Source: an uncultured Myxococcales bacterium
GTDB taxonomy: Bacteria > Myxococcota_A > UBA9042 > CAIXZC01
NCBI GenBank assembly: GCA_964522395.1
Contig: CAZFVN010000002.1
Location: 43,644 to 107,643 of the forward strand
Length of the DNA: 64,000 nt
Direction: 5' to 3'
Every line of letters begins with the position of its first letter. The first letter of the stretch is position 1. Below the pieces are notes generated by a model. That model was given only the letters and a program-made list of their open reading frames with translations. It was not told the origin of the DNA and searched no databases. Shown here piece by piece: positions 524-53,348 of the stretch. Made by a program: the position numbers and the translations under genes.

Positions 524-3500
524 ATGCGTAGAATCGGATTCTTCTCAAGCCTACTCGTCTTGTTGCTTTCTCTTTCAGCCCAGGCTTCGGTCCCGGCGGC
601 TCTCTCCTACCAGGGTTTTTTGACAGACTCGGTGGGTAACCCCGTAACGGGGACCTGGACAGTTACCTTCGGCCTGTACGCAGGGCCGTCGGGGGGCGAG
701 GTGCTCTTTGAAGAGTCCCTCGATGTGACCACCGACAAGGGCCTCTTCAGCGTCTACCTGGGTACTCCGGATAATCCTCTGCCGGTAGGGTCATTTAAGG
801 CGGGGGAGCTCTTCCTGGAGCTGACAGTTGAAACCGATGATGGTCCAGTAGCGCTGACTCCCCGCCAGCAAGTAGTGTCGGACCCCTACGCCCTCTATGC
901 CCAGGATGCTGCTCAATTGGGCGGAGAGGATGCCGAAGCATTCGTCTTGCTGCAGCAATTGCCCGATCTCTGCGTCACGCCCGAAGCGCTGCCCGATGTG
1001 CTTGCAGAGTTGGGCATCGTCGGCGGTGGGCTGGACGAGGAGGCGCTGGCCGCCTGGCTGCTGGTCAACGGGTACAATGCCTGCGCTTGCTACGCAGACG
1101 ACAATGTCGCCAACTATCTGGCCGCGGCGGGCTATGAGCCTGGACCCTACTTCACTGGTTTGTACGAAGACCTTGTTGATTCTCCCGATCTCTCTATCTA
1201 TATGACGTCGGAAGATGTGGCAGCAGCACTCGCCAGCCTTGGGGCGGTACTTCTGGCCGACGGTTCCGTGGCCCTTGAGGGTGATTTTGATTTTGCTGGT
1301 TTTCAGGCTCTTAATCTGGCGGTGCACAATTCTGTAGACCCGCCCGCTGACCCTGCTGCCGGACAGCTTTGGTGGGATCTCAACCAAGTGATATTGAAGG
1401 TCTACACAGGGGAGGGATGGTCTGGCATCGGAGCTGGCGTGGCTGCCGATATTGCCTGTCCGGAGTGTGTAGATGCGGATGACGTTGCCTTTACCTTCGC
1501 AGCAGCCGATCAAAAGGGCGGCGCGGCGCTCAACGTGAACTGCTTCCAGTGCATCAACGGGGACGAGGTCAACTTCGCCTGGGCCAAAGGTGTCGAACCT
1601 GGGGGCGATGCTGAGCACGCCCTCACTGCGGATACCGCTTTGAACGCTGAGAAGGCCGCTGATCTGGAGTGTCCCGGCTGTGTCGATGTCGCTGACATCA
1701 ACCCTGTGGCCCTTGCTTCGGGCGTGGTTTCTTTTGATGATTCCAAGGCGAAATTGGGTGCGGCAACTGCCCAGGAGGCCTTTGAGAAGTTAGCCGCCAG
1801 TGGCGGTTCCGGTGCCGTAGAGGGTAACGGCACCATCATCTCCTATGTCGAGCAATGGGGATTGTCTGCCTACGGCTCTGCAACTACCTACATGCACCTT
1901 ATGAACCCGGCGTCACCCAAGGTGCTGATGCATCTCTATGCAGACGATTCAGCGAGCTTCGCTTCCTCGAACAACCTGGTAGTGGCATATGCCTTCGCCC
2001 CCAATCAGTATTCCGCTGGGGCCATGGGCAACCAGGGGGAGAACGCGCTGCAGGTGGGCAATCCCAGTACTTTCAACAGTGGCAGTCATATCATGATTCA
2101 TCAGACCCGGGGCAGTGATGGAGTCAGCGCGGGCACCTGGGAACTGAACCAGGTGAAGTCGGTAAACGGCTCGACCCTTCATCTGATAAAGCCGTTGGCC
2201 AACGACTACGTCACGGGTGGTTCAGCCAAAGCTCAGGTCGTACTGGCGGCTTCCTTCGGCAATGTTGAAATTGTTAACGGCGGCACCCTCAAGCCTTCTA
2301 TGGCACTCGCTGTGGATGGCTCCATGGGCGGCATTGTCTATGTTCGAGCCAACAAGATGACCGTCAAATCGGGCGGACGCATCGACGCGGATGGCATGGG
2401 CTTCCAGCCTTCGCCGGGGGGGTACTTCGCTCCCGGTTCGTCGGAGTGCGGAGTTGGTATTCCTGGCGAATCCGAGCAGAATTGCTCGGGGGGCGCCGCG
2501 GGTGCGATCCAATGTGCCAATGCAGGCGGTGGTGGCAACAAGGCCGCCGGGCAAAACGGCACCAACCACGGCAACTGTGCCACCGAAACGGAAGGCGGTG
2601 CGGCCAAGGGTGATGGCAATCTCAATACTCTGGAGTTTGGCGGCGCCGGCGGCACTCAGTTCGCCGGGGGCGGAGCTGGCGGCGGTATCGTAGTTATCGG
2701 CGCCCAGTCTTTTGTGGTACAGGATGGCGGCAAGGTCTCGGCAGATGGTTCTGTGGCCACAGACCGCGGTTCCGGTGGTGGCGCCGGCGGGACCATCGCA
2801 CTCTACGCAGATTTCCACCAGTTGGACGGTGAGGTGACGGCTGCAGGCGGCAAGGGTGGTGAAGTCCTGCAATGGAAGCATATCGAACCCAAACCCCTCA
2901 CTCCCGTTACTTTCAATACACGCTCCCACGGCGGGGGCTATAGTCCGAAGTATTTGGAATTCTGGTATCCGCATTGGTCGGGGTCGACTATCTACCGGTA
3001 TGACAGGAACTATACTCCCCTTGGTGATTTCACTTCTGGCAACAATAACATGATGCAACTCTGGGGCGATCCCGATGGCACCTACTACACTGCCAACTAC
3101 GGACAGGACCGAATACGGAAGTGGTCTGACAAGGGCAACAGCCAGATCTGGGAGTACTACAACGGCGGCACCACCAATGGTGTCTGCGCGGACGAAGACT
3201 ACGTCTATGCCATGCGCAGTAGCGGCAATGAGGTAAGGAAGCTCAACAAGACTACCGGCCAGCATGTCCAGACCTTCACAATATCGAACACTTCCAGCAC
3301 CGATGGCGCGCTACTGTGCACTCCAGGAAGGCTCTATTACGGTCGCACAGATGGCACTGTCTACTACCACGATACTTCCTCACATCAGCAACTTGGCTCA
3401 TTCTCCGCCGGTACAAATATCCACAACATGTCCTTTGACGGGCAGATCATGTACGTCTCGCCAAACTCGAGCACGGTTTCACGGATCCAACTCATAGAGG

Positions 3501-4624
3501 GGAACATCTACGAACCGGCAGGATCCGGCGGCGATGGCGGCGAAGGCTGGGTTGTGGAGAAGAGCCCCAAGGCCGGTATCATCAATGAATCCTATCCCAA
3601 GGGCATCCAGATCTGGATCGACGGAGAAGATGTCACCACCCAGGTAGGGGACCCCAACGGCAAGGGCAGTCCATCCTGGGATGCCCAGAACGGCATGTGG
3701 GGCAAAGATGGATTGGAGTCCTGGTCGACAGGGCAACTCGATCTGACCTCCGTTGCCAATTGGACGCTGGGTGAACACGCGATCCAGGTGAAAGAGACCG
3801 GCGGGGCGGGTGGAGATGTGAAGATGTTTGCCTACGTGGTCTATCCCTTCACCAAATCTGTAGCTCCAGTAAATGATACTTGTGACCAGCCGGTGATGCT
3901 CGACGTTTCTGACGCGGTAACCGTGACGGGTACCACGGAAGATGTCATGGGTAAGATCAAGGCAACTGATGCCAACACCGGGCCGTTCTGTGGCGGTTCG
4001 GGTGGTTCGGATGTGACCTACGGTTTTGTCTTGGACGACTGGCGCAGCCTGAGTATTTCGACGGTCTCTGCATTTACCCCCCGGGTCTACTTGCGCAAGG
4101 ACAGTTGCGCGGATGGCCAGGTGGTAGCGTGCGGTTCCAACCTCATCGATACCGGAGTCCTGGAACCGGGGACCTATTTCCTGGTGGTCGATTCCGATGG
4201 CAATTTGCAAAAGGGCAACTTCTCGCTGACCATTGTGCCCTCACCGCCCGACGCGCCAACCAACGATTCCTGCGCCATGCCCCAGCAATTGGTCTTCCAG
4301 AACAATGTTGCCAAGGCCAGCGGCATGACTCTTTTTTCTAACGACCTTTATTCCGCCGCGTGTGGTGGGGATGGTGCGCCGGAGAATACCTTCACTTTCG
4401 TGGTGCCGCCTGGAACTTCGAAGCTGGATATCGATGTCGACGCAGACTACGACCCGGTTATCTACATGGTCAAGGACAACTGCGAAGGGGGGCTGATAGC
4501 CTGCATTCCAGACAGTTCCTACCAGATGGGCTGGCCGGGACCGGGGACCTATTTCCTCTTCCTGGATGGCAAGACAGGCAATGACAAGGGGCTCTATGAG
4601 TTGTCCGTGAGCCTGGTGCAATAG
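524..4624 (+). CDS. Array paralog A, long form, 1366 aa. Secreted multidomain protein: conserved N-terminal domain, Gly-rich beta-helix-like core, beta-propeller-like insert, 2x C-terminal PPC-like domains.
   Basis: Uninterrupted ORF. Sec signal peptide MRRIGFFSSLLVLLLSLSAQA|SVPAAL. Conserved mature N-terminus AALSYQGFLTDSVGNPVTGTWTVTFGLY. GGAGGTQFAGGGAGGGIVVIGAQS glycine-rich repeats. C-terminal GTYFLVVDSDGN / DADYDP / GTYFLFLDGKT motifs typical of bacterial pre-peptidase C-terminal domains. Confidence 0.85.
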   Translation: MRRIGFFSSLLVLLLSLSAQASVPAALSYQGFLTDSVGNPVTGTWTVTFGLYAGPSGGEVLFEESLDVTTDKGLFSVYLGTPDNPLPVGSFKAGELFLELTVETDDGPVALTPRQQVVSDPYALYAQDAAQLGGEDAEAFVLLQQLPDLCVTPEALPDVLAELGIVGGGLDEEALAAWLLVNGYNACACYADDNVANYLAAAGYEPGPYFTGLYEDLVDSPDLSIYMTSEDVAAALASLGAVLLADGSVALEGDFDFAGFQALNLAVHNSVDPPADPAAGQLWWDLNQVILKVYTGEGWSGIGAGVAADIACPECVDADDVAFTFAAADQKGGAALNVNCFQCINGDEVNFAWAKGVEPGGDAEHALTADTALNAEKAADLECPGCVDVADINPVALASGVVSFDDSKAKLGAATAQEAFEKLAASGGSGAVEGNGTIISYVEQWGLSAYGSATTYMHLMNPASPKVLMHLYADDSASFASSNNLVVAYAFAPNQYSAGAMGNQGENALQVGNPSTFNSGSHIMIHQTRGSDGVSAGTWELNQVKSVNGSTLHLIKPLANDYVTGGSAKAQVVLAASFGNVEIVNGGTLKPSMALAVDGSMGGIVYVRANKMTVKSGGRIDADGMGFQPSPGGYFAPGSSECGVGIPGESEQNCSGGAAGAIQCANAGGGGNKAAGQNGTNHGNCATETEGGAAKGDGNLNTLEFGGAGGTQFAGGGAGGGIVVIGAQSFVVQDGGKVSADGSVATDRGSGGGAGGTIALYADFHQLDGEVTAAGGKGGEVLQWKHIEPKPLTPVTFNTRSHGGGYSPKYLEFWYPHWSGSTIYRYDRNYTPLGDFTSGNNNMMQLWGDPDGTYYTANYGQDRIRKWSDKGNSQIWEYYNGGTTNGVCADEDYVYAMRSSGNEVRKLNKTTGQHVQTFTISNTSSTDGALLCTPGRLYYGRTDGTVYYHDTSSHQQLGSFSAGTNIHNMSFDGQIMYVSPNSSTVSRIQLIEGNIYEPAGSGGDGGEGWVVEKSPKAGIINESYPKGIQIWIDGEDVTTQVGDPNGKGSPSWDAQNGMWGKDGLESWSTGQLDLTSVANWTLGEHAIQVKETGGAGGDVKMFAYVVYPFTKSVAPVNDTCDQPVMLDVSDAVTVTGTTEDVMGKIKATDANTGPFCGGSGGSDVTYGFVLDDWRSLSISTVSAFTPRVYLRKDSCADGQVVACGSNLIDTGVLEPGTYFLVVDSDGNLQKGNFSLTIVPSPPDAPTNDSCAMPQQLVFQNNVAKASGMTLFSNDLYSAACGGDGAPENTFTFVVPPGTSKLDIDVDADYDPVIYMVKDNCEGGLIACIPDSSYQMGWPGPGTYFLFLDGKTGNDKGLYELSVSLVQ

Positions 4625-4670
4625 CGCAGCAAACCGGTGCGGGCTGAGTGTCCGCCGGTGAGGGGTGACG

Positions 4671-7600
4671 ATGAAAGCAAGATGGGTAGTTGGAATCTCG
4701 GCAGCATTGGCAGTTTCTTTCATTCTGTTGCCCTCGATGGCAGTTCGCGCGGCCGCTCCAGCGGCGCTTTCATACCAGGGCTTTCTAACCGATTCGGTGG
4801 GCAATCCCGTGACCGGTACCTGGACGGTCTCGTTTGGTCTGTACGCAGAGCCATCAGGGGGGGAAGTGCTCTTTGAGGAGTCCCTCGACGTGACCACCGA
4901 TAAGGGTCTCTTCAGCGTCTACCTGGGTACCCCGGACAATCCTCTGCCGGTGGGCTCGTTTGAGGCAGGAGAGCTCTTTCTTGAGCTGACAGTTGAAACT
5001 GACGACGGTCCGGTGGCACTGACTCCGCGTCAGCAAGTCGTTTCAGACCCTTATGCCCTTTATGCCCAGGATGCTGCCCAGTTGGGCGGTGAGGATTCTT
5101 CATCATACGTGCTGCTCCAACAGTTACCGGACATTTGCATCACTCCTGAGGCATTGCCCGACGTTCTTGCTGAGTTGGGGATTGTTGGCGGTGGACTTGA
5201 TGAAGAGGCGCTGGCCGCCTGGCTGCTGGCCAATTCCTTTGTGGATGAGGCATTACTTGCGGCCTGGCTGCTGGACAATGGATATGACCCCTGTGCCTGT
5301 TACGGAGACGAGGGTGTGGCCGCTTACCTGGCCGCCGAGGGATTCGTCGCCGGTCCCCATTTCTCGGGGTCCTACGACGACCTGATGGATGCCCCCGATC
5401 TCTCCGGCTTCATGACCGCCGACGACATTGCCGAGGCCCTCTCCAATCTGGGTGCGGTGCTTCTCGCCGATGGGTCTGTAGCCCTCGAAGGCGACTTTGA
5501 TTTTGCCGGTTTCCAGGCCCTCAATCTGGCGGTGCACAATTCCGATGAGCCGCCGCTGGAACCGGTTGCCGGACAACTCTGGTGGGACCTAAACGAGGTT
5601 CTCTTGAAGGTCTACACCGGCGAAGGCTGGTCTGGCATCGGCACTGGTGTAGCGGCTGACATCGCCTGCCCTGAATGTGTGGATGCTGATGACGTGGCTT
5701 TCACCTTTGCTGCGGCCGACCAGAAGGGTGGTGCGGCGCTCAACGTCAACTGCTTCCAGTGTATCAAGGAAGAGGAAGTGAGCTTCGCCTGGGCCAAAGG
5801 CGTTGAGCCAGGCGGGGCGGCGGAGCATGCAGTCGTCTCCGATACTACCCTTGATGTGGCCTGTCCCGGCTGCGTCGATGTGGCCGATATCAATCCTGCA
5901 GCCCTCGCTTCGGGCGTGGTTTCCTTTGATGACTCCAAAGCCAAATTGGGTGCTGCAACTGCACAGGAGGCCTTCGAGAAGTTGGCGGCGGTTGGGGGCT
6001 CAAGTGCGGTGGAAGGCAACGGCACCATCGTTCCCTATGTCGAGCAATGGGGGCTTCCCGCATATGGCTCGGCCACGACCTATCTTCATCTCATGAACCC
6101 GGCTTCGCCAAAGGTGCTGATGCATTTGTATGCCGACGATTCGGCCAGCTTCGCGTCTTCCAATAATCTGGTCGTCGCCTACGATTTCGCCCCCAACCAG
6201 TATTCGGCCGGGGCCATGGGCAATGTCGGTGAGACCGCCTTGCAGGTTTCCAATCCCAGTACCTTCAACAGCGGTAGTCACATCATGATTCATCAGACCT
6301 GGGGCAGTGACGTTGCAACGGCCGGTACCTGGGAGCTCAATCAGGTGAAGTCGGTGAATGGCACGACCCTACATTTAATCAAACCGCTGGCCAATAGTTA
6401 TGTCACGGGAGGTGGCGCCAAAGCGCAGGTTGTGCTGGCCGCGTCGTTTGGCAACGTCGAAATCGTTAATGGCGGGACGCTCAAACCATCCCAACCTCTG
6501 GCGTTGGATGGCTCCATGGGTGGCATCGTCTATGTGCGGGCCAACAAGATGACCGTCAAGTCCGGTGGTAGAATCAATGCTGATGGTGCCGGTTTCCAAC
6601 CGACTCCAGGGGGCTATTTTGCCCCCGGCTCGTCAGAATGTGGCGTTGGGACCCCCGGCGAATCCGAGCAGAACTGTTCGGGTGGTGCGGCCGGTGCGGT
6701 GCAGTGTGCCAATGCCGGTGGCGGCGGCAATAAGACGGCGGGTCAAGACGGTACCGTCCACGGTGATTGCGAAGCCCAATCCAAGGGTGGTGTGGCCAAG
6801 GGTGACGCCAACTTAGGTACCCTTGAGTTTGGCGGAGCTGGCGGCACACAGTTTGAGGGCGGAGGAGCTGGCGGCGGTATCGTCGTCATCGGCGCCCAGT
6901 CTTTCGTGGTCCAGGATGGCGGTAAGGTTACGGCCGACGGGATCGCAGCTTCCGACCGCGGCTCGGCTGGCGGCGCCGGTGGAACTATCGCTCTCTACGC
7001 AGATTTCCATCAGTTGGACGGCGAAGTCATCGCTGAAGGTGGCGACGGAGCTGTAGTCAAGCAGTGGACCTACATTGAACCCAAGGCTCTCGGTACAGTG
7101 AATTTCGATACTCATTCCCACGGTGGCGGATATAGCCCCAAGTATAGGGAGTTCTGGTACCCGAAATGGGGGTCGAAGACCATCTACCGGTTCAACCTCG
7201 ACTACGAACCGCTGGGAACTTTTGATAGCGGTAACAATGATATGATGGGGTTCTGGGGTGACACGGACGGCACCTATTACACGGCCAACTGGGGCCAGGA
7301 CAGAATTCGTAAGTTCTCGGACAAGGGCGCCAGCCAGATCTGGGAGTATAGCCTCGGCTCCACCGCCGGCGCGGTTTGCGCCGATGAGAACTACGTCTAT
7401 GGCATGCGCCATGGTGATACAACGGTGTGGAAGCTCAACAAAGATACTGGGCAGCAGGTCGATACGTTCGCCTTGTCCGGTGCAAATAGTGCCTACGATT
7501 CGCTCATCTGTGCACCCGGGAGGTTCTACTACGGGCGCACCAACGGGCAGGTATATATCTACGACTCCAACTCGCATGGGCAGATTGGGAGTTTCAACGC

Positions 7601-8816
7601 AGGCATCAGCATTGATAGCGTAGCTTTCGACGGTCAGGTGATGTACGTCTCTCCGAACACCAGTACAGTGACCAGGTTCCAACTGGTGGATGGCAACGTC
7701 TACGAGCCAGCCGGTTCCGGTGGTGATGGTGGCGACGGGTGGGTAGTAGAGAAGACTCCTATTTCTGGGATCATTAATGAATCATATCCAAAGGGCATCG
7801 AGATCTGGATTGACGGAGAGGAAGTCACTGAGCAGGTGGGCGATCCCAATGCCAAGGGAACTCCGGCCTGGGATGTTGCAACCAACAAGTGGGGTAAGGA
7901 CGGTTTAGAGGCTTGGTCTACGGGGCCCCTGGACCTTACGTCGGTTGCTAACTGGACCCTGGGCGAACACTCCATCCAGGTGAAAGAGACTGGCGGCGCG
8001 GGTGGCGACGTCAAGATGTTCGCCTATGTCATCTATCCCTTCACCAAATCGACGGCTCCCGTAAACGATACTTGCGACCAGCCGGTGATGCTTGACCTTT
8101 CGGATGCGGTGACCGTTTCTGGCACCACTGAAGATATCATGGGCAAGGTCAAGGCTACCGATGCCAATACCGGACCGTTTTGTGGTGGTTCGGGTGGTTC
8201 GGATGTGACCTACGGGTTCACCCTCACTGACTGGCGCAGTCTGAGCATTGCGGTCACCTCCGCCTTCACGCCAAGGGTCTATTTGCGCAAAGACTCTTGC
8301 GCCGATGGTCAGGTGGTGGCGTGCGGGACAAACCTCATTGATACCGGGGTGCTGGAGCCGGGGACTTACTATCTGGTGGTAGATTCCGATGGCAACATGC
8401 AGAAGGGTAATTTCAGCCTGACCGTAGTGCCATCACCACCTGACGCCCCCGGCAATGACTCGTGTGCCGGGCCACAACCAATGATCTTCCAGAACAACAC
8501 TGCCCAGGCCAGCGGCATGACTTTTTTCTCTAACGACCTCTACTCGGCCGCGTGTGGTGGAGCCGGGGCGCCAGAGAACATCTTTACCTTTGTGGTACCG
8601 CCCGGGACGTCCAAACTGGATATCAATGTGGATGCCGACTACGACCCCGCCATCTACATGGTCAAGGATGCCTGCGAAGGCGCACTTATTGCGTGCATTC
8701 CAGACAGCACCTATCAGATGGGCTGGCCGGGACCGGGGACCTACTTCCTCTTCTTGGACGGCAAAACCGCCAACGACAAGGGGCTCTACGAGTTGACCGT
8801 GAGTATCACTCAGTAG
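4671..8816 (+). CDS. Array paralog B, long form, about 1381 aa from ATG 4671. Secreted multidomain protein of the same family.
   Basis: The ORF track starts at a GTG at 4665. The ATG at 4671 gives MKARWVVGISAALAVSFILLPSMAVRA|AAPAAL and lies after GAGGGGTGA. About 90% aa identity to paralog A over the N-terminal ~450 aa, with many synonymous differences. Confidence 0.8.
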   Translation: MKARWVVGISAALAVSFILLPSMAVRAAAPAALSYQGFLTDSVGNPVTGTWTVSFGLYAEPSGGEVLFEESLDVTTDKGLFSVYLGTPDNPLPVGSFEAGELFLELTVETDDGPVALTPRQQVVSDPYALYAQDAAQLGGEDSSSYVLLQQLPDICITPEALPDVLAELGIVGGGLDEEALAAWLLANSFVDEALLAAWLLDNGYDPCACYGDEGVAAYLAAEGFVAGPHFSGSYDDLMDAPDLSGFMTADDIAEALSNLGAVLLADGSVALEGDFDFAGFQALNLAVHNSDEPPLEPVAGQLWWDLNEVLLKVYTGEGWSGIGTGVAADIACPECVDADDVAFTFAAADQKGGAALNVNCFQCIKEEEVSFAWAKGVEPGGAAEHAVVSDTTLDVACPGCVDVADINPAALASGVVSFDDSKAKLGAATAQEAFEKLAAVGGSSAVEGNGTIVPYVEQWGLPAYGSATTYLHLMNPASPKVLMHLYADDSASFASSNNLVVAYDFAPNQYSAGAMGNVGETALQVSNPSTFNSGSHIMIHQTWGSDVATAGTWELNQVKSVNGTTLHLIKPLANSYVTGGGAKAQVVLAASFGNVEIVNGGTLKPSQPLALDGSMGGIVYVRANKMTVKSGGRINADGAGFQPTPGGYFAPGSSECGVGTPGESEQNCSGGAAGAVQCANAGGGGNKTAGQDGTVHGDCEAQSKGGVAKGDANLGTLEFGGAGGTQFEGGGAGGGIVVIGAQSFVVQDGGKVTADGIAASDRGSAGGAGGTIALYADFHQLDGEVIAEGGDGAVVKQWTYIEPKALGTVNFDTHSHGGGYSPKYREFWYPKWGSKTIYRFNLDYEPLGTFDSGNNDMMGFWGDTDGTYYTANWGQDRIRKFSDKGASQIWEYSLGSTAGAVCADENYVYGMRHGDTTVWKLNKDTGQQVDTFALSGANSAYDSLICAPGRFYYGRTNGQVYIYDSNSHGQIGSFNAGISIDSVAFDGQVMYVSPNTSTVTRFQLVDGNVYEPAGSGGDGGDGWVVEKTPISGIINESYPKGIEIWIDGEEVTEQVGDPNAKGTPAWDVATNKWGKDGLEAWSTGPLDLTSVANWTLGEHSIQVKETGGAGGDVKMFAYVIYPFTKSTAPVNDTCDQPVMLDLSDAVTVSGTTEDIMGKVKATDANTGPFCGGSGGSDVTYGFTLTDWRSLSIAVTSAFTPRVYLRKDSCADGQVVACGTNLIDTGVLEPGTYYLVVDSDGNMQKGNFSLTVVPSPPDAPGNDSCAGPQPMIFQNNTAQASGMTFFSNDLYSAACGGAGAPENIFTFVVPPGTSKLDINVDADYDPAIYMVKDACEGALIACIPDSTYQMGWPGPGTYFLFLDGKTANDKGLYELTVSITQ

Positions 8817-8818
8817 TT

Positions 8819-8935
8819 CTAATGGGTGAGGCAAACGATGGGTACGAAGGGAGTGGGTGGAGCAAATGGGCGAGGCAAATGGGTGAGGCAAGTGGGTGAG
8901 GCAAACGATGGATACGAAGGGAATGGGAGAGGCAC
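8819..8935 (+). repeat. Local tandem duplication of the inter-paralog leader motif, with about 4 copies of GGGTGAGGCAAA-like 12-mers.
   Basis: GGGTGAGGCAAACGATGGGTACGAAGGGAGTGGG occurs at about 8824-8858 and again at about 8894-8928 as ...GATGGATACGAAGGGAATGGG. Intervening copies are TGGGCGAGGCAAA and TGGGTGAGGCAAG. Confidence 0.7.
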
Positions 8936-8937
8936 AA

Positions 8938-11900
8938 ATGGCTAGAAGGCACATCACAGTTGGGCTCACTATCGCAGTATTGGCGCTGACGTGCTTCTCG
9001 CCCTTTTCAGCGCAAGCGGCTGCACCCGCTGCTCTCTCCTACCAGGGGTTCTTGACCGATTCGGTGGGTAACCCGGTGACAGGTACCTGGACAGTGACTT
9101 TTGGACTTTATGGGGAGCCCTCGGGAGGGGACTCGCTCTTCATGGAGTCATTGGATGTGACTACTGACAAGGGGCTCTTCAGTGTCTATCTAGGAACTCC
9201 GGACAATCCGCTTCCGGTGGCTTCATTTGAAACCGGCGAGCTCTTTCTTGAGTTGACGGTGGAGACCGACGATGGCCCCGTTGTGCTGACGCCGCGCCAG
9301 CAGGTAGTGTCGGATCCCTACGCCCTCTATGCCCAGGATTCTGCGCAACTCGGCGGTGAAGATTCTTCATCGTACGTGCTGCTCCAGCAGTTGCCGGACA
9401 TATGTATCACCCCCGAGGCCTTGCCCGACGTTCTGTTGGAGCTGGGAATTACGGGTGGCGGACTGGACGAGGAGGCCCTGGCCGCCTGGTTGCTGGCCAA
9501 TTCATTTGTGGATGAAACCTCTCTTTTGTCCTGGCTCCTGGAAAACGGGTATGAGACTGGTTCGCACTTCTCGGGTCTATACGAGGATCTCATCGATGTT
9601 CCTGACCTCGCCGGCTTCATGACGGCGGAAGATGTGGCCGAGGCCCTTGCTGCCCTGGGTGCGGTGTTACTGGCCGATGGCTCGGTGGCCCTCGATGGGA
9701 ATTTTGATTTTGCTGGCTTCCAGGCACTCAATCTGGCCGTACACAATTCCTTGGAGTCCCCGGAAGAGCCTGTAACCGGTCAGCTCTGGTGGGACCTGAA
9801 CGAGTCGCTGCTGCGGGTCTATACCGGCCAGGCGTGGTCTGGTATCGGCACGGGTGTAGCGGCAGATCTTTCTTGTCCCGAGTGCGTCGAGGCTGATGAT
9901 GTGGCCTTCACTTTCGCCGCGGCTGACCAGAAGGGCGGTGCGGCGCTCAACGTCAACTGCTTCCAATGTATCAGCGAAACTGAAGTGAACTTCGCCTGGG
10001 CCAAGGGGGTTGAGCCTGGCGGTGATGCCGAGCACGCGCTCACTGCCGACACGGCAACCAACGCGCTCACTGCGGACACAGCGGCGGATGTAGATTGTCC
10101 CGGCTGCGTTGATCTCGCAGACGTCAATCCCGCAGTCCTCGTTTCCGACGTCGTCGCCTTTGATGATTCGGTAACCAAGTTGGGGGCCAATACCGTCCAG
10201 GGGGCCTTTGAGAAACTGGCTGCTGTGGGCGGCTCCAGTGCGGTGGAGGGCAATGGCACCATCGTGCCCTACGTCGAGCAATGGGGACTTCCTGCATACG
10301 GGTCAGCCACGACTTATCTGCACCTGATGAACCCGGCTTCGCCAAAGGTCCTGATGCACCTTTATGCTGATGATTCGGCCAGCTTTGCCTCCTCCAATAA
10401 TCTGGTAGTGGCCTATGACTTTGCCCCAAACCAATACTCAGCCGGGGCCATGGGTAACCAGGGGGAGACTGCGCTTCAGGTGGGCAATCCCAGCACTTTC
10501 AACAGCGGCAGCCACATCATGGTGCACCAGACCACCGGAGATGACGGTATTACTGCCGGTACCTGGGAACTCAACCAGGTGAAGTCGGTGAACGGCTCGA
10601 CGCTGCATCTGATCAAGCCTCTCGCTCACGGTTATGTCACAGGGGGAAAGGCCAAGGCGCAGGTCGTGCTGGCGGCCTCCTTCGGCAATGTCGAAATCGT
10701 CAATGGTGGGACGCTCAAACCCTCTTCGCCGCTAGCGGTGGACGGCTCCATGGGCGGAATTGTCTATGTGCGGGCCAATAAGATGACCGTGAAATCCGGA
10801 GGTCGTATCAACGCGGATGGAGCCGGCTTCCAGCCCTCAGCGGGCGGCTATTTCGCCCCCGGTTCTTCGGAGTGCGGGGTTGGTACGGCGGGTGACTCTA
10901 AGCAGAACTGCTCGGGCGGGGCTGCCGGCGCTATCCAGTGTGCCAACGCTGGCGGCGGTGGCAACAAGACCGCGGGCCAGGATGGCTCCAATCACGGCAA
11001 TTGTGCCACTCAGACCGAAGGAGGAGCGTCCAAGGGTGACGGCAACCTCAATACGTTGGAATTCGGTGGTGCTGGTGGTACGCAGTTCGCAGGTGGCGGC
11101 GCGGGTGGTGGAATTGTTGTTATCGGGGCACAGTCTTTTGTAGTGCAGGACGGCGGCAAAGTCACGGCAGACGGAAAGTCGGCCAGCGACCGTGGCTCTG
11201 GTGGCGGTGCCGGCGGAACTATCGCACTCTTCGCAGATTTCCACCAGTTGGACGGGGATGTCTCCGCGGTTGGTGGCGAGGGTGGCGACGTGAAGCAGTG
11301 GAAGTATATTGAGCCTAAGCAACTGACTCCGGTCTCCTTCAATACCCGCTCCCATGGTGGTGGCTATAGCCCCAAGTACCTGGAGTTCTGGTACCCGGAG
11401 TGGTCGGGTTCGACCATCTACCGCTATAGCAGGGAATACGCTCCCCTCGGTGATTTTGCCTCGGGAAACGATCACATGATGCAACTCTGGGGCGACCCTG
11501 ACGGCACCTACTACACGATCAATTGGAGCCAGGACCGGGTGCGGAAATGGTCGGACAAAGGGGACAATCAGTTATGGGAGTACAATATCGGCAGTACCGC
11601 CGGGGCTGTTTGCACCGACGAAACCTACGCCTACGCCATGCGGCACAGCGGCAACGATGTGTGGAAGCTGAACAAGGCCACGGGCCAGCACGTGCAGACC
11701 TTCTCACTGAACAACACGGCAAGTATCTACGGTGGCCTGGTCTGTACTCCGGGGCGCCTCTACTACGGGCAGTCGGGTGGCAGTGTCTATATACACGACT
11801 CATCATCGCATCAGCAATTGGGCTCGTTTACGGTGGGCACCAGCATCAACAATATGTCCTTCGATGGTCAGGTAATGTACGTTTCGCCCAACTCCAGTAC

Positions 11901-13050
11901 TGTAACCCGCTTCCAACTCGTTGACGGCAATATCTACGAGCCGGCCGGGTCGGGTGGTGATGGTGGCGAAGGATGGATTGTCGAGAAGGCCCCAATGGCG
12001 GGAATCATCAATGAATCATACCCAAAGGGTATCGAGATTTGGGTAGATGGTGACGAGGTAACGCCGCAGGTGGGTGACCCCAACGCTAAGGGCACACCCG
12101 CTTGGGATGCTGCGACTCAGAAATGGGGCAAGGACGGCTTGGAAGCCTGGGCTACCGGTCCCCTGGACCTTACTTCGGTTGCCAATTGGACGCTAGGCGA
12201 GCACTCGCTGCAGGTGAAAGAGACGGGTGGTGCCGGTGGCGACGTCAAGATGTTTGCTTATGTCATCTACCCCTTCACCAAGTCGAGCGCCCCGGTAAAT
12301 GATACTTGCGATCAGCCGGTGATGCTGGACCTCTCAGATAGTGTTACCGTTGCCGGTACAACCGAAGATGTGATGGGCAAGATCAAGGCAACCGATGCCA
12401 ATACCGGGCCCTTCTGCGGCGGCTCGGGTGGAGCGGATGTTACCTATGCCTTTGTCCTGGATGATTGGCGGAGTATAAGCATTTCAGTGACTTCTGCCTT
12501 CGTCCCCAGAGTCTACTTGCGTAAGGACAGTTGTGCCGATGGTCAGGTCGTAGCGTGCGGCACCAGCCAAATCGATACAGGAGTGCTGGAGCCGGGGACC
12601 TACTATCTCGTGGTAGACTCAGACGGCAATATGCAGAAGGGGAACTTCACTCTCACCGTTGTGCCTTCGCCCCCAGATGCTCCAGGCAATGACTCGTGCG
12701 CCGGACCGCAGCAGATGGTCTTCCAGAACAACGTTGCCAAAGCCAGCGGCATGACGCTTTTTTCTAACGACCTCTACTCCGCTGCGTGTGGCGGGGATGG
12801 TGCACCAGAGAACATCTTCACGTTCGAGGTGCCGGCTGGCACTGCCAAACTGGATATCGACGTCAGCGCTGATTTTGACCCCACCATCTATATGGTCAAG
12901 GGTAACTGTGATGGCGTTCTTATCGCCTGCATCCCAGACAAGACATATCAGATGGGCTGGCCAGGGCCGGGGACCTATTTCCTCTTCCTGGACGGCAAGA
13001 CCGCAAACGACAAGGGGCTCTACGAGTTAACGGTGACCCTGACGCAATAG
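8938..13050 (+). CDS. Array paralog C, long form. Secreted multidomain protein.
   Basis: The ORF is open from 8896. The probable start is ATG 8938 (MARRHITVGLTIAVLALTCFSPFSAQA|AAPAAL), which gives a canonical signal peptide. The in-frame extension MDTKGMGEAQ is possible, so the start is uncertain. Confidence 0.75.
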   Translation: MARRHITVGLTIAVLALTCFSPFSAQAAAPAALSYQGFLTDSVGNPVTGTWTVTFGLYGEPSGGDSLFMESLDVTTDKGLFSVYLGTPDNPLPVASFETGELFLELTVETDDGPVVLTPRQQVVSDPYALYAQDSAQLGGEDSSSYVLLQQLPDICITPEALPDVLLELGITGGGLDEEALAAWLLANSFVDETSLLSWLLENGYETGSHFSGLYEDLIDVPDLAGFMTAEDVAEALAALGAVLLADGSVALDGNFDFAGFQALNLAVHNSLESPEEPVTGQLWWDLNESLLRVYTGQAWSGIGTGVAADLSCPECVEADDVAFTFAAADQKGGAALNVNCFQCISETEVNFAWAKGVEPGGDAEHALTADTATNALTADTAADVDCPGCVDLADVNPAVLVSDVVAFDDSVTKLGANTVQGAFEKLAAVGGSSAVEGNGTIVPYVEQWGLPAYGSATTYLHLMNPASPKVLMHLYADDSASFASSNNLVVAYDFAPNQYSAGAMGNQGETALQVGNPSTFNSGSHIMVHQTTGDDGITAGTWELNQVKSVNGSTLHLIKPLAHGYVTGGKAKAQVVLAASFGNVEIVNGGTLKPSSPLAVDGSMGGIVYVRANKMTVKSGGRINADGAGFQPSAGGYFAPGSSECGVGTAGDSKQNCSGGAAGAIQCANAGGGGNKTAGQDGSNHGNCATQTEGGASKGDGNLNTLEFGGAGGTQFAGGGAGGGIVVIGAQSFVVQDGGKVTADGKSASDRGSGGGAGGTIALFADFHQLDGDVSAVGGEGGDVKQWKYIEPKQLTPVSFNTRSHGGGYSPKYLEFWYPEWSGSTIYRYSREYAPLGDFASGNDHMMQLWGDPDGTYYTINWSQDRVRKWSDKGDNQLWEYNIGSTAGAVCTDETYAYAMRHSGNDVWKLNKATGQHVQTFSLNNTASIYGGLVCTPGRLYYGQSGGSVYIHDSSSHQQLGSFTVGTSINNMSFDGQVMYVSPNSSTVTRFQLVDGNIYEPAGSGGDGGEGWIVEKAPMAGIINESYPKGIEIWVDGDEVTPQVGDPNAKGTPAWDAATQKWGKDGLEAWATGPLDLTSVANWTLGEHSLQVKETGGAGGDVKMFAYVIYPFTKSSAPVNDTCDQPVMLDLSDSVTVAGTTEDVMGKIKATDANTGPFCGGSGGADVTYAFVLDDWRSISISVTSAFVPRVYLRKDSCADGQVVACGTSQIDTGVLEPGTYYLVVDSDGNMQKGNFTLTVVPSPPDAPGNDSCAGPQQMVFQNNVAKASGMTLFSNDLYSAACGGDGAPENIFTFEVPAGTAKLDIDVSADFDPTIYMVKGNCDGVLIACIPDKTYQMGWPGPGTYFLFLDGKTANDKGLYELTVTLTQ

Positions 13051-13092
13051 AGTAGCAACCGGTGTGGACTCAAAGCCGCACCAGAGGAGTTG

Positions 13093-16000
13093 ATGATGAA
13101 AGGAAGACTAGCACTGGCAATCTCGGCAGCGATGTTGGCAAGCTTGGCGATGTTGCCGTTGGCAGCTCAGGCTGCGGCCCCTGCGGCCCTCTCTTACCAG
13201 GGCTTCCTGACCGATTCAGTTGGTAACCCGGTGACGGGGACGTGGACAGTGACCTTCGGACTCTACGCTGAGCCTTCGGGAGGCGATGCCCTCTTCCAGG
13301 AATCATTGGATGTGACCACCGACAAGGGGTTGTTCAGCGTCTATCTGGGTACTCTGGACAATCCTCTGCCGTTGGCTGAGTTTGAAACCGGGCAGCTCTT
13401 TCTGGGCCTGACCATTGAGACTGATGATGGGCCGGTGGCGTTGACACCAAGACAGCAGGTGGTGTCGGATCCCTATGCCCTCTACGCCCAGGATGCCGCG
13501 CAGCTTGGTGGGGAAGACGCGGCTGCGTTTGTCTTGCTCCAGCAGTTGCCTGACCTCTGTATTACACCCGAAGCTCTGCCTGATGTCCTGGCAGAGTTGG
13601 GTGTCGTGGGTGGCGGTCTGGACGAAGCGGCGCTTGCTGCCTGGCTTCTCGTAAATGGCTACAACCCTTGCGCCTGTTATGCCGATGATAATGTGGTCGA
13701 CTATCTGGCTGCAGCCGGGTACGAGCCCGGCCCCTATTTCTCCGGCCTCTATGACGACCTCATTGACGCCCCTGACCTCGCCGGTTTCATGACGGCCGAG
13801 GACGTTGCCGATGCCCTCAGCAATCTAGGTGCGGTGCTCCTGGCAGATGGCTCAGTGGCGCTGGAGGGAGATTTCGATTTCGCCGGCTACCAGGCCCTCA
13901 ATCTGGCAGTACACAACTCACTTGAACCACCTGCGGAGCCGGTCGCCGGTCAACTTTGGTGGGACCTTGCCGACGGTCTGCTGAAGGTCTACACCGGCCA
14001 GGCATGGTCGGGGATTGGCACCGGCGTGGCTGCGGACATAGCCTGTCCCGAATGCGTGGATGCAGATGATGTGGCCTTTACCTTTGCGGCCGCTGACCAG
14101 AAAGGTGGCGCGGCGCTAAATGTGAACTGTTTCCAGTGTATAAGTGAAACCGAAGTCAACTTCGCCTGGGCCAAAGGCGTTGAGCCCGGTGGCGATGCCG
14201 AGCATGCCCTCACCGCGGATTCGGCCCTGACGGCCGATAAGGCCATTGACGTGGAGTGTCCTGGGTGTGTCGGCCTCTCGGACATCGACGCTGCTGCCCT
14301 GGCCTCAGAAGTTGTCAGCTTCGACGATTCGAAAACCAAGATTGGGGCACAAACGGTGCAGGGGGCCCTTGAAAAGTTGGTCGCCAGTGGTGGCAGCGGG
14401 GCTGTTGAAGGCAATGGCACCATCGTCCCCTATGTCGAACAATGGGGTCTTCCCGCTTACGGCTCGGCAACTACTTACCTGCATCTGATGAACCCAGCTT
14501 CACCCAAGGTACTGATGCACCTCTACGCCGATGACTCGGCCAGCTTCGCGTCATCAAATAACCTCGTTGTTGCGTATGCCTTTGCGCCCAACCAATACTC
14601 GGCTGGAGCCATGGGCAATGCGGGGGAGACCGCGCTGCAGGTGGCCAACCCCAGTACCTTCAACAGCAGCAGCCACATCATGATTCATCAGACCCGGGGT
14701 GATGACGGAGTCGTCGCGGGTACCTGGGAACTCAACCAGGTGAAGTCGGTGAACGGCTCAACCCTCCATTTGATTAAGCCCTTGGGCAACACCTATGTCA
14801 CCGGCGGCTCTGCTAAGGCCCAGGTAGTGCTGGCGGCGTCCTTCGGCAATGTGGAGATTGTCAACGGCGGAACCCTCAAGCCGTCTTCACCGCTGGCGCT
14901 GGATGGCTCCATGGGCGGCATCGTTTACGTGCGAGCGAACAAGATGACCGTGAAGTCGGGCGGTCGTATTGACGCGGACGGGATGGGCTTTCGGCCGACC
15001 CCAGGTGGTGACTTCGTCCCCGGTTCTTCAGAGTGTGGTCTTGGCACCGTCGGTGACTCCAAACAAAACTGCTCAGGGGGGGCTGCAGGCAAGTGGCCAT
15101 GTGGGAATGCTGGGGGTGGTGGCAATAAGTCCGCAGGCCAGAACGGCTCGGATCATACAGGTTGTCCAATTGAAACTGAGGGTGGTGCAGCTAAGGGCGA
15201 TGCGAACCTCAATACGCTTGAGTTCGGAGGTGCCGGAGGCACTCAATTCGCAGGCGGCGGCACCGGGGGTGGCATTGTGGTCATCGGGGCCCAGTCGTTT
15301 GTTGTTCAGGACGGCGGTAAAGTCTCGGCAGACGGTATGGCGGCCACCGATCGAGGTTCCGGCGGTGGGGCCGGTGGGACCGTAGCGCTCTTCGCAGACT
15401 TCCATCAGTTGGACGGCGAAGTAACGGCCACGGGTGGAATTGGCGGGGAAGTGGTGACGTGGAGTTTCATTGAGCCAAAGGCTCTTGAGTCCGTCTCCTT
15501 CAATACCCATTCCCATGGTGGCGGCTATAGTCCCAAGTACCTGGAGTTCTGGTACCCACAGTGGTCTGGGTCGACCATCCACCGTTATGACATCGATTAT
15601 GTGTCGCTCGGGACGTTTGCCAGCGGCACCAGCGATATAATGGGTCTCTGGGGAGACACGGACGGCACCTACTACACCGCCAACTGGGGTCAGGACAAGG
15701 TGCGCAAGTTCTCGGACAAGGGCAGTGACCAGATCTGGGAATACGGTTTGGGTACCACAGCCGGTGCTATTTGCTCCGACGAGAACTATGCCTATGCGAT
15801 GCGGCACGGCGGTGACACGGTGTGGAAGCTCAACAAGGATACTGGACAGCTCGCCGAGACCTTCTCTTTGCCCGGAGCGAACAGCATTACAGGTGGTTTG
15901 GTTTGCACTCCGGGGAGGTTCTATTATGGCACCGACAGTGGGACGGTGCGTATCTACGACGCTAACTCTCATCAGCAGATCGGTAGCTTCAACGTTGGCA

Positions 16001-17211
16001 CTGGTATCGCCAATATGGCTTTCGACGGTAGGGTGATGTACGTCTCGCCGAACTCGAGTACTGTGACACGGTACCAACTCACCGAGGGCAACATCTACGA
16101 ACCTGCTGGCTCCGGCGGTGATGGTGGTGAGGGCTGGCTACTCGAGAAGACACCGATGGCCGGGATCATTAATGAGTCCTATCCCAAGGGTATCGAAATC
16201 TGGGTTGATGGGGAGAATGTCACTGCGCAGGTGGGTGACCCCAACGGCAAGGGCTCTCCGGCCTGGGATGCTCCCACCAGCAAGTGGGGCAAAGACGGCT
16301 TGGAGTCTTGGTCAACCGGGCAGTTGGACCTTACGTCAGTGGCTAACTGGACGCTGGGCGAGCACTCGCTGTCGGTGAAGGAGACAGGTGGTGCGGGCGG
16401 GGATGTGAAGATGTTCGCATACGTGGTCTACCCCTTCACAAAATCGAGCGCACCGATGAATGATACTTGTGATCAGCCGGCAATGCTTGACCTCTCCGAT
16501 ACGGCGGTGGTGACGGGCACCACCGAAGACGTCATGGGCAAAATCAAGGCGACCGATGCCAATGTCGGGCCGTTTTGCGGTGGCTCCGGTGGTGCTGATG
16601 TGACCTACGGATTTACGCTCACCGAATGGCGCAGTTTGTCCATTGCAGTGACCTCCGCATTCATTCCCCGGGTCTATCTACGCAAGGATTCTTGCGAAGA
16701 CGGCCAGGTGGTGGCTTGTGGCACCAAACTGATTGATACCGGGGTCCTGGAGCCGGGGACTTACTATCTGGTGGTGGATTCGGATGGGAATCTGCAGAAG
16801 GGCAACTTCACTCTGACCGTAGTTCCGTCGCCTCCCGATGCGCCGGGCAACGACTCTTGCGCAGCTCCCCAGCAGATGGTCTTCGAGAACAACATTGCCA
16901 AGGCCAGCGGCATGACTCTTTTTTCTAACGACCTTTACTCCGCCGCGTGTGGTGGAGATGGCGCACCAGAGAACATCTTCACCTTCGTCGTGCCCGCGGG
17001 GACGTCCAAATTGGATATCAGCGTGGACGCCGATTTCTCTCCTACCATTTATATGGTCAATGGAGCCTGCGAGGGTGCGCTCATCGCGTGCATCCCCGAT
17101 AGTTCTTATCAAATGGGGTGGCCAGGGCCGGGCACCTACTATCTTTTCTTGGATGGCAAGACAGCGGACGACAAGGGGATCTACGAATTGACCGTGGGCC
17201 TCACGCAGTAG
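13093..17211 (+). CDS. Array paralog D, long form. Secreted multidomain protein.
   Basis: GAGGAG RBS, then ATGATGAAA at 13093. Signal peptide MMKGRLALAISAAMLASLAMLPLAAQA|AAPAAL. Full domain set as in paralog A. Confidence 0.8.
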   Translation: MMKGRLALAISAAMLASLAMLPLAAQAAAPAALSYQGFLTDSVGNPVTGTWTVTFGLYAEPSGGDALFQESLDVTTDKGLFSVYLGTLDNPLPLAEFETGQLFLGLTIETDDGPVALTPRQQVVSDPYALYAQDAAQLGGEDAAAFVLLQQLPDLCITPEALPDVLAELGVVGGGLDEAALAAWLLVNGYNPCACYADDNVVDYLAAAGYEPGPYFSGLYDDLIDAPDLAGFMTAEDVADALSNLGAVLLADGSVALEGDFDFAGYQALNLAVHNSLEPPAEPVAGQLWWDLADGLLKVYTGQAWSGIGTGVAADIACPECVDADDVAFTFAAADQKGGAALNVNCFQCISETEVNFAWAKGVEPGGDAEHALTADSALTADKAIDVECPGCVGLSDIDAAALASEVVSFDDSKTKIGAQTVQGALEKLVASGGSGAVEGNGTIVPYVEQWGLPAYGSATTYLHLMNPASPKVLMHLYADDSASFASSNNLVVAYAFAPNQYSAGAMGNAGETALQVANPSTFNSSSHIMIHQTRGDDGVVAGTWELNQVKSVNGSTLHLIKPLGNTYVTGGSAKAQVVLAASFGNVEIVNGGTLKPSSPLALDGSMGGIVYVRANKMTVKSGGRIDADGMGFRPTPGGDFVPGSSECGLGTVGDSKQNCSGGAAGKWPCGNAGGGGNKSAGQNGSDHTGCPIETEGGAAKGDANLNTLEFGGAGGTQFAGGGTGGGIVVIGAQSFVVQDGGKVSADGMAATDRGSGGGAGGTVALFADFHQLDGEVTATGGIGGEVVTWSFIEPKALESVSFNTHSHGGGYSPKYLEFWYPQWSGSTIHRYDIDYVSLGTFASGTSDIMGLWGDTDGTYYTANWGQDKVRKFSDKGSDQIWEYGLGTTAGAICSDENYAYAMRHGGDTVWKLNKDTGQLAETFSLPGANSITGGLVCTPGRFYYGTDSGTVRIYDANSHQQIGSFNVGTGIANMAFDGRVMYVSPNSSTVTRYQLTEGNIYEPAGSGGDGGEGWLLEKTPMAGIINESYPKGIEIWVDGENVTAQVGDPNGKGSPAWDAPTSKWGKDGLESWSTGQLDLTSVANWTLGEHSLSVKETGGAGGDVKMFAYVVYPFTKSSAPMNDTCDQPAMLDLSDTAVVTGTTEDVMGKIKATDANVGPFCGGSGGADVTYGFTLTEWRSLSIAVTSAFIPRVYLRKDSCEDGQVVACGTKLIDTGVLEPGTYYLVVDSDGNLQKGNFTLTVVPSPPDAPGNDSCAAPQQMVFENNIAKASGMTLFSNDLYSAACGGDGAPENIFTFVVPAGTSKLDISVDADFSPTIYMVNGACEGALIACIPDSSYQMGWPGPGTYYLFLDGKTADDKGIYELTVGLTQ

Positions 17212-21391: not shown

Positions 21392-21441
21392 TCTCAGTGG
21401 GTGAGGCAAAAGATGAATGTGAACAGGATGGGTGGTTATTC
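21392..21441 (+). promoter_or_regulatory. E/F junction leader. It holds GGGTGAGGCAAAAGATG and an 11-codon +1-frame uORF (21413-21448, MNVNRMGGYSC) overlapping the main ATG at 21442.
   Basis: Read directly from the sequence. The same motif order as the D/E junction. Confidence 0.5.
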
Positions 21442-25554: not shown

Positions 25555-25605
25555 TTTCAACGGGTGAGCCAATTGATGAGCACGACCCAAATGGATGGTT
25601 CAAAT

Positions 25606-29187: not shown

Positions 29188-29238
29188 TCCTACTGGGTGG
29201 AGCAAAAAATGAGCAGGAACAGAAATGGGTGGTTCAAC

Positions 29239-32811: not shown

Positions 32812-32888
32812 CTCTAGTGGGTGAGACATTTCTAACGGGTGAGGCTTCAATGGGTGAAACAGAAGATGACTGGAAGAGGTGGTTCAAT

Positions 32889-36488: not shown

Positions 36489-36503
36489 CAACAGGTGAAC
36501 ACC

Positions 36504-51003: not shown

Positions 51004-51046
51004 ATTTCGTCCTCGCTGGTGGCCGGCGGCGGACCTCATCCTGGGT

Positions 51047-53188: not shown

Positions 53189-53348
53189 CCTTCCCTCCCT
53201 CGACACGAGCAGCACGAGCGCGCACTTCGCGTTAGTTTGGAGTATACATTGCGCGCCTGTACGGGTCAACGAAAAGCGCCGCTTCGCTGCTGGCGTCCGC
53301 AACGCAAAGCTGGTAGCGTGGAAACCGACGAAAAAGGTGGAGGACTGC

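Follow-up and report, generated by a model that had tools for sequence, protein, structure and literature searches.

The closest described relatives of the proteins examined here are the mosaic adhesive trimers (MATs) of Bdellovibrio bacteriovorus, fibres with which this predator binds its prey, all 21 of which carry a beta-rich domain that is conserved and spans ~130 amino acids (aa) directly after the signal peptide (Caulton et al. 2024, PMC10769870). This MAT N-terminal domain has no homologue in the PDB and has been proposed to adjoin the predator surface and to bind a surface element, the fibres themselves being homotrimers ('meandering trimerisation') that are displayed on the producer and bind epitopes of target cells, and a supplementary table places MAT-like proteins in Oligoflexia, Bradymonadaceae, Myxococcales, the FCB group, the PVC group and Omnitrophica (PMC10769870). 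The DNA analysed in this study is a stretch of 64,000 nucleotides (nt) from an uncultured Myxococcales bacterium (contig CAZFVN010000002.1), referred to below as the window. Its first 40 kilobases form a head-to-tail array of ten intact plus-strand paralogs, A to J (524-40076), in which every protein opens with a signal peptide followed by a near-invariant N-terminal domain (N-domain). The explanation that we consider best, with a probability of roughly 65%, is that the array encodes secreted giant proteins whose N-domain, of the MAT superfamily, is kept by purifying selection and would serve as a cell-proximal docking module.

Kinship with the N-domain of MAT fibre adhesins

In all ten copies a Sec-type signal peptide ends in an A-x-A cleavage motif, and after two to three further residues the chain continues as 'P-A-A-L-S-Y-Q-G' / 'PAALSYQGFLTDSVGNPV...'. 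The N-domain that begins here is the first folded domain of the protein and consists of a beta-sandwich of ~95 residues and a conserved tail of ~30 residues; in A, the sandwich core occupies nt ~593-880 and is followed by the 'PYALYAQDAAQLGGEDA..FVLLQQLPD' tail. All ten N-termini matched the NCBIfam model NF053851 ('Bdello_MAT_N, mosaic adhesive trimer family chimeric fiber protein') with expectation values (E) of 1e-9 to 4e-13 and scores of 38.4-49.3 bits, set against a curated cut-off of 60 bits. Because the match is partial and lies below this cut-off, the array proteins do not belong to the Bdellovibrio subfamily as NCBI defines it, and the homology is one at the superfamily level. Profile comparison thus places the N-domain in one superfamily with the N-terminal domain of Bdellovibrio MAT fibre adhesins. 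An earlier sequence-only reading of this DNA had proposed, from motifs, a likeness to the N-termini of bacterial tail-fibre-like or fibre-adhesin proteins; that likeness holds at the level of sequence profiles, and no structural similarity to solved or phage fibre N-termini was seen in the searches described next.

The structural evidence was obtained from an AlphaFold2 model built on a 116-sequence alignment, which shows a beta-sandwich at residues 6-96 (predicted local distance difference test, pLDDT, 80-96) followed by less confident helices, with a mean pLDDT of 81.5 and a predicted template modelling score of 0.65; the same sandwich recurs in a full-length model of J. When this N-domain model was compared with the PDB by Foldseek, nothing was found at E<=1e-3, the best matches being generic Ig-like or macroglobulin domains with a template modelling score (TM) of ~0.4, while predicted viral structures (BFVD) returned only borderline Ig-like, Big-1 and FN3-type domains (E ~1e-3, TM <=0.45). 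No significant structural similarity to fibre N-termini was therefore seen in these Foldseek searches, a result that refutes only that analogy, and the lack of a solved structural homologue is a trait that the N-domain shares with its MAT counterpart. By sequence, full-length A gave no match to solved structures, and Pfam yielded no family for the N-domain, whether the window proteins, 91 complete family members or 43 isolated N-domains (E<=1) were scanned.

The family to which this domain belongs is very broad. A word-indexed homolog search with a single N-domain returned only two near-identical fragments, so that a full HMMER scan was needed, and a profile of the ten window domains run against 1.84 billion cluster representatives matched 30,421 of them at E<=1e-3, a number that falls to 3,526 when E<=1e-10 is required. 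NF053851 was also matched by 85 of the 91 best-scoring family members (best E 3.5e-25). The host proteins range from 141 to 1542 aa and join the N-domain to mutually unrelated partners, among them Peptidase_S74 (8 of the 91 best), Beta_helix, P_proprotein, TIG and others, with phage tail collar and collagen added by a second search. Source labels, available for a subset of the matches, cover about a dozen lineages in all, including candidate division KSB1, Phycisphaerae, Terriglobales, Zixibacteria, Bipolaricaulia, Elusimicrobiota, WOR-3, Desulfobulbaceae, Patescibacteria, Spartobacteria and Ignavibacteriaceae. The family consensus, ..P....YQG.LTD..G.PV.G....TF.LY....GG..LW.ET..V.V..G.FSV.LG..NPLP...F......LG..V..D.E..PRQ...S.PYA..A..A..LGG, contains the motif set that had been put forward from the sequence alone (YQG.L.D..G.P..G, GG, FSV.LG and PRQ...PYA). 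As a separate observation, P0162 (labelled Zixibacteria) and P0186 are short N-domain proteins, and a 385-aa FG-GAP_3 protein lies within ~2 kb of each (L006 6013-7170 and L007 4798-5955), which may reflect related genomes only.

Within the family the domain sits close to the N-terminus: of the 152 best-scoring matches, 142 have it beginning by residue 60 (median residue 26). Such a near-invariant site after the signal peptide would also be expected of an export or sorting module that a dedicated outer-membrane pathway of translocation or assembly reads in the periplasm, since periplasmic recognition would oblige the N-domain to sit at the mature N-terminus; the fusion to unrelated passenger regions, and the retention of the domain in all ten paralogs while their signal peptides are only 34% identical, point the same way. 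We nevertheless regard an export role as unlikely. Four family members (P0007, P0008, P0016 and P0021) contain three or four tandem copies, some of them internal and far from the N-terminus, so that the domain is not strictly confined to the mature N-terminus, which would be odd for a pure sorting signal. Moreover, no known secretion-system gene adjoins the array or three distant family members, and the MAT literature favours surface retention (PMC10769870).

A further alternative is that the N-domain is the N-terminus of a phage tail fibre, used for attachment to a baseplate or virion, and that the array derives from a prophage or a phage-derived particle locus. The array proteins do resemble tail fibres and tailspikes in combining a constant proximal end with a distal binding part. 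Phage-type modules (tail collar, Peptidase_S74, PHROG tail-fibre families) stand at the C-terminus of some family members, an 'A..LGG..A..FV' motif after the N-domain recurs across the family, and weak Foldseek matches to phage tail-tip and minor tail proteins were obtained (E 1e-3 to 4e-2). However, the structural matches are to generic Ig-like sandwiches (TM <=0.45), no PHROG family matches the N-domain, and tblastn of the domain against 50,697 phage genomes gave no match. In addition, every copy has a Sec signal peptide, the genes are chromosomal, the flanks are housekeeping genes, the G+C content is uniform at 57-59% over the array and these neighbours, and no phage genes were found in the window. 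Taken together, these searches exclude a phage-virion origin, which we consider highly improbable, and by sequence comparison link the N-domain to bacterial fibre adhesins and not to phage fibre N-termini.

Beyond the profile match, the array shares with the MATs a beta-rich fold placed two to three residues after the A-x-A motif in all copies, many paralogs per genome, large proteins of ~1000 aa or more and, in the wider family, fusion of the N-domain to unrelated C-terminal modules including S74. There are also differences. The array copies score 38-49 bits against the 60 required by NF053851 and leave the middle of the profile unmatched. MAT paralogs swap non-homologous tips, whereas in the array a single body plan is common to all ten proteins and their C-terminal tips are homologous (63-81% identity); the array proteins lack an S74 domain and would fall in the non-S74 group. 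Their body is built instead of an AgmC_N-like Gly-rich beta-helix, an optional propeller-like insert and collagen-binding-like tandem jelly-rolls. Finally, the array is one tandem run of at least 11 genes, while the 21 MAT locus tags of strain HD100 are mostly non-consecutive, suggesting scattered loci (PMC10769870 supplement).

Conservation and silent-site divergence of the tandem copies

The N-domain was compared over 127 alignment columns after the signal peptide in the ten copies (45 pairs). Pairwise amino acid identity averages 0.878 (range 0.803-0.945), and 89 of the 127 columns are invariant, the highest fraction among all segments. The sequence-only reading had put the first ~130 mature residues above 85% identity in all ten copies; the mean agrees with this, whereas 8 of the 45 pairs, mostly pairs with H, fall below 0.85. 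At the nucleotide level the same domains are only 0.70-0.83 identical. Nei-Gojobori proportions of synonymous differences (pS), computed for all 45 pairs, are 0.60-0.82 in the N-domain and 0.66-0.75 over whole genes, where 0.79 would be expected if synonymous codons were redrawn at random from the codon usage of the family, and at least two codons are used in 83 of the 88 invariant degenerate N-domain columns (94%). Silent sites are therefore near saturation everywhere, in the N-domain no less than elsewhere, and the DNA does differ at many third positions, as had been claimed. The example offered for that claim needed correction: A 600-683 and B 4747-4830 are out of frame and out of register (17 nt off), with 55 differences and in-frame stops, while in the true register A 599-682 pairs with B 4764-4847 and the two stretches differ by 19 changes, of which 18 are synonymous and 1 is non-synonymous, a count close to the ~17 reported.

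The proportion of non-synonymous differences (pN) is 0.084 in the N-domain against 0.200 in the rest of the protein, a ratio of 0.42 (column-bootstrap 95% interval 0.30-0.56), and when pN was ranked over 1067 sliding windows of 127 columns the N-domain fell among the five lowest, each of which overlaps the N-terminal block. The absolute ratios of non-synonymous to synonymous divergence (dN/dS) are 0.05-0.12, values that are rough owing to saturated dS. Non-synonymous divergence compared domain by domain is thus lower in the N-domain than elsewhere.

Since the copies are tandem and co-oriented, a layout that favours gene conversion, it was considered whether recent or ongoing conversion, in the manner of concerted evolution, could keep their N-termini alike. 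Two tracts exceed the column-shuffle expectation: a 150-nt window at 93% identity between G (26557-26707) and H (30190-30340), in the second conserved block described below, and a run of 50 identical nt between E (21314 onward) and F (25477 onward) at the extreme C-terminus, which is the longest identical run of any pair. These may be small old conversion tracts or clusters of constrained codons. The adjacent copies D and E also share derived states, and no other pair has a higher N-domain nucleotide identity (0.826) or a lower pS (0.60). Against conversion, every pair remains at an N-domain nucleotide identity of 0.70-0.83 and a pS of 0.60-0.82, several codons occur in 94% of the invariant degenerate columns, and none of the five longest identical runs (35-50 nt) lies within the N-domain, where the longest run to start is 29 nt (pair C-G). 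Recent gene conversion is excluded by pS and codon use, and we consider conversion highly improbable as the explanation.

The comparison with external homologs leads to the same result. Outside the N-domain, each window copy is 0.85-0.93 identical to a homolog on contigs from other samples, against 0.69-0.82 to its best in-window paralog, so that most duplications appear to predate the split of these lineages. The closest relatives come from JGI sample 3300072015 (91-93% identical). Contigs from other samples carry tandem arrays of at least 4-7 such genes, some of them together with the Sua5 and oxidoreductase genes of the window, and one ENA contig (L003) holds five complete copies that are not clean 1:1 orthologs of A-D and whose pS is still 0.60-0.68. 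In a close relative the ortholog of A is likewise preceded by one more copy. The ten copies and at least one upstream are ancient tandem duplicates. With silent sites close to saturation and external homologs nearer than paralogs, it is purifying selection on the protein and not gene conversion that keeps the N-domain nearly identical between copies, which upholds the earlier view of a domain that is old, strongly constrained and not recently homogenised.

The D/E pair deserves separate mention. The two N-domains share the states GDALFQ, PLPLAEFE and FLGLT and are the closest of any pair at the protein level (0.946), while the bodies of D and E belong to different subgroups (0.77); the same states are present in the external fragments P0001 and P0002. 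This likeness may stem from an ancient exchange or from recurrent use of a few permitted states.

Body plan of the proteins and proposed role of the N-domain

In A, the order of parts after the signal peptide is the MAT_N-like domain, a region of ~330 aa that is unfoldable as a monomer, an AgmC_N-like Gly-rich beta-helix region, an insert of ~215 aa and tandem C-terminal jelly-rolls. The proteins of A-F (1366-1385 aa) are longer than those of G-J (1193-1223 aa) because the insert is present in the former and missing from the latter; its propeller likeness comes only from weak matches to PHROG 8401 and WND, and long and short forms are both found on contigs from other samples. That the rest of the protein diverges, as the sequence-only reading had it, is correct relative to the N-domain and overstated otherwise, given that the remainder is 63-83% identical between pairs, keeps one domain order in all ten copies and contains a second block nearly as constrained. 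The N-terminal conserved block itself reaches approximately column 215 (identity 0.84-0.89), and the second block, with an identity of 0.88-0.90 at alignment columns 340-400, comes close to the N-domain in conservation, its pN being 0.090 over columns 290-417. Of three C-x-x-C motifs, the first two lie in this block (CPECVDADDVAFTFAAADQKGGAALNVNCFQCI; CPECV..., CFQCI...) and the third (CPGCV) follows ~50 residues downstream; the block may provide an oligomeric stalk with a metal or disulfide site.

The lowest identities are found in the linker (columns 420-480, 0.56-0.60), the Gly-rich central beta-helix region (0.48-0.64) and the insert (0.49-0.67), while the C-terminal tandem jelly-rolls reach 0.63-0.81 across the ten copies. 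The proposed logic of a constant shaft and a variable tip consequently does not describe the array, in which the middle is most variable and the tip is conserved in every copy; the modular principle holds in the wider domain family, where the N-domain is fused to unrelated C-terminal parts. Short helical units of the types '..L..WLL.N.F/Y' and 'D..V..YLA..GY' also vary in number between the copies (columns 213-240; A 1067-1090, G 26164-26232 and J 37047-37115). An extra helical unit occurs in B, G, H, I and J, and an 'NGYxxCACY...' unit is missing in C and F, which looks like stepwise length variation of a stalk.

The central and C-terminal regions recall two other described systems. The Gly-rich region (A aa ~534-629, J aa 507-840) matches NF047640 (gliding_AgmC_N), the model for AgmC of Myxococcus adventurous gliding motility, at E ~1e-17 over most of its 412 positions, suggesting a common Gly-rich beta-helix-type module; the scores of 63-64 bits against a cut-off of 275 mean that these proteins are not AgmC equivalogs, and the match lies outside the N-domain. 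In the J model, two C-terminal beta-sandwiches of ~125 aa each have as their best Foldseek match in the PDB the s3a-s3b domains of clostridial collagenase ColG (5iku, E 4e-9), with tandem CUB and neuropilin-type modules next, at a sequence identity of 15%, a target-normalised TM of 0.35, a large root mean square deviation and no Pfam match. The J model also gave a weak match to a phage tailspike beta-helix in the PDB, and neither Peptidase_S74 nor any other Pfam family was matched in A or J.

Modelled at full length, J reaches a mean pLDDT of 71.9, with block means of mostly 73-89 in the N-domain and a confident, beta-rich portion at residues 458-1193 (mostly 80-97). Residues 122-457, which include the second most conserved block, remain below 50 as a monomer and would be compatible with an oligomer-dependent fold. 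This observation also bears on the alternative that the N-domain is mainly an oligomerisation module that nucleates a trimer and sets the register of the fibre shaft: MAT fibres are trimers (PMC10769870), and a stretch of ~330 residues that is conserved yet modelled at pLDDT <50 as a monomer is typical of intertwined oligomeric shafts. The N-domain, however, folds confidently on its own as a monomeric beta-sandwich in AlphaFold2, and phage and MAT fibres usually trimerise from the C-terminal end, for instance through the S74 chaperone, which the array proteins lack. We therefore consider trimer nucleation as the main function quite unlikely.

For the docking reading, we infer from the MAT analogy and from the fixed position of the N-domain in the best-scoring family members that the domain would be a common cell-proximal module, docking all paralogs to one partner on the surface of the producer or in its export route. 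A single common docking partner would explain why ten anciently diverged copies keep the N-domain unchanged. The conserved ~330 residues that do not fold as a monomer would then form an oligomeric stalk, and the remaining polypeptide, comprising the region that probably depends on oligomer formation to fold, the Gly-rich beta-helix, the optional propeller-like insert and the tandem jelly-rolls, would project outward from the cell and carry the binding function. Several points weigh against this interpretation. The matches to NF053851 stay below its cut-off and align only at profile positions ~2-80 and ~115-160, with the first stretch partly covering the signal peptide; near-saturated synonymous sites make dN/dS among the paralogs rough, leaving only the ranking of segments by pN as robust. 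One family member is labelled Patescibacteria, which disfavours a strictly outer-membrane-specific receptor, and the gene neighbourhoods of three distant family members revealed no convincing common partner gene.

The kind of protein and its N-domain were already described in 2024 and a curated model exists, and purifying selection on a common module is ordinary. What appears to be new is a tandem arrangement of at least 11 paralogs with one common architecture, seen again on contigs from other samples, together with a body plan that is not that of the MATs and the measured breadth of an N-domain family without a Pfam entry or a solved structure, far wider in its spread than the Bdellovibrio family for which the model was curated. 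It is conceivable, though we would put this forward only as a tentative and rather doubtful proposal, that the array is an undescribed repertoire of MAT-like surface fibres, belonging to an uncultured lineage of deltaproteobacterium type, in which at least 11 ancient tandem paralogs combine a body plan new among MATs with docking through a common N-domain. If this were true, the N-domain would mark a surface-presentation system present over many bacterial phyla and in more than 30,000 protein clusters. The array also provides a natural experiment on the N-domain: 70% of its residues are invariant while silent sites are near saturation, which singles out the residues of importance and speaks for one interaction partner common to all copies.

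Coordinates and genomic surroundings

The positions of the array genes and their parts are collected in Table 1.

Table 1. Positions in the window of the array paralogs, their N-domains and further parts of the encoded proteins
Feature	Position (nt)	Strand	Remarks
Eleventh copy, C-terminal 167 aa	5-508	+	Its start lies upstream of the window
Paralog A	524-4624	+	1366 aa; first complete array copy
Paralog B	4665-8816	+	
Paralog C	8896-13050	+	
Paralog D	13090-17211	+	
Paralog E	17282-21391	+	
Paralog F	21397-25554	+	
Paralog G	25564-29187	+	Short form without insert
Paralog H	29197-32811	+	Short form
Paralog I	32817-36488	+	Short form
Paralog J	36495-40076	+	Short form; copy taken for the full-length model
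Signal peptide of A	524-586	+	MRRIGFFSSLLVLLLSLSAQA, A-x-A cleavage motif; read directly from the sequence
N-domain of A	593-973	+	aa 24-150; lies inside the 590-1000 of the sequence-only reading
N-domain of B	4758-5138	+	
N-domain of C	9025-9405	+	
N-domain of D	13180-13560	+	
N-domain of E	17366-17746	+	
N-domain of F	21526-21906	+	
N-domain of G	25690-26070	+	
N-domain of H	29323-29703	+	Most divergent N-domain, 80-87% identical to the others
N-domain of I	32973-33353	+	
N-domain of J	36573-36953	+	
Second conserved block in A	1403-1582	+	Alignment columns 340-400, identity 0.88-0.90; equivalent in J at 37428-37607
Insert in A, ~215 aa	2867-3514	+	In A-F, none in G-J; beta-propeller-like sequence
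Two tandem C-terminal beta-sandwich (jelly-roll) domains in A	3866-4621	+	Each opens with 'ND(T/S)C'

Many minus-strand open reading frames of 150-390 aa overlap the paralogs within the array, and these long antisense frames are most likely artefacts of a G+C-rich coding strand. One of them (791-1618, minus strand, 275 aa) overlaps the N-domain of A and was treated as spurious, the free variation of third positions disfavouring a second constrained frame.

A scan of the whole window with Rfam found no RNA families. The neighbouring housekeeping genes encode Sua5/YrdC, subunits of a 2-oxoacid:ferredoxin oxidoreductase, a Nuo51-type flavoprotein and an FAD-dependent flavoprotein of the succinate dehydrogenase/fumarate reductase type, for which L-aspartate oxidase is not told apart from the other members. 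Three genes converge on the array end (40123-42078, 42253-42993 and 43029-44162, all on the minus strand); their products are a 651-aa protein without a Pfam match, a TPR protein and one of 377 aa that matches DUF3869 weakly.

Further along, two minus-strand frames (46609-51183 and 51047-53629) encode very large Cys- and Asp-rich proteins with many MopE 'putative metal-binding motif' (PF11617) and thrombospondin type 3 repeats; the two calls overlap by ~137 nt (51047-51183), which means that one start or both have been miscalled. Beside these MopE-repeat proteins lies a lamin-tail-domain protein of 916 aa (53337-56087, plus strand), and all three have the appearance of additional secreted or surface proteins. 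The 1524-aa protein encoded there ends in a domain reminiscent of the C-terminal jelly-rolls of the array.

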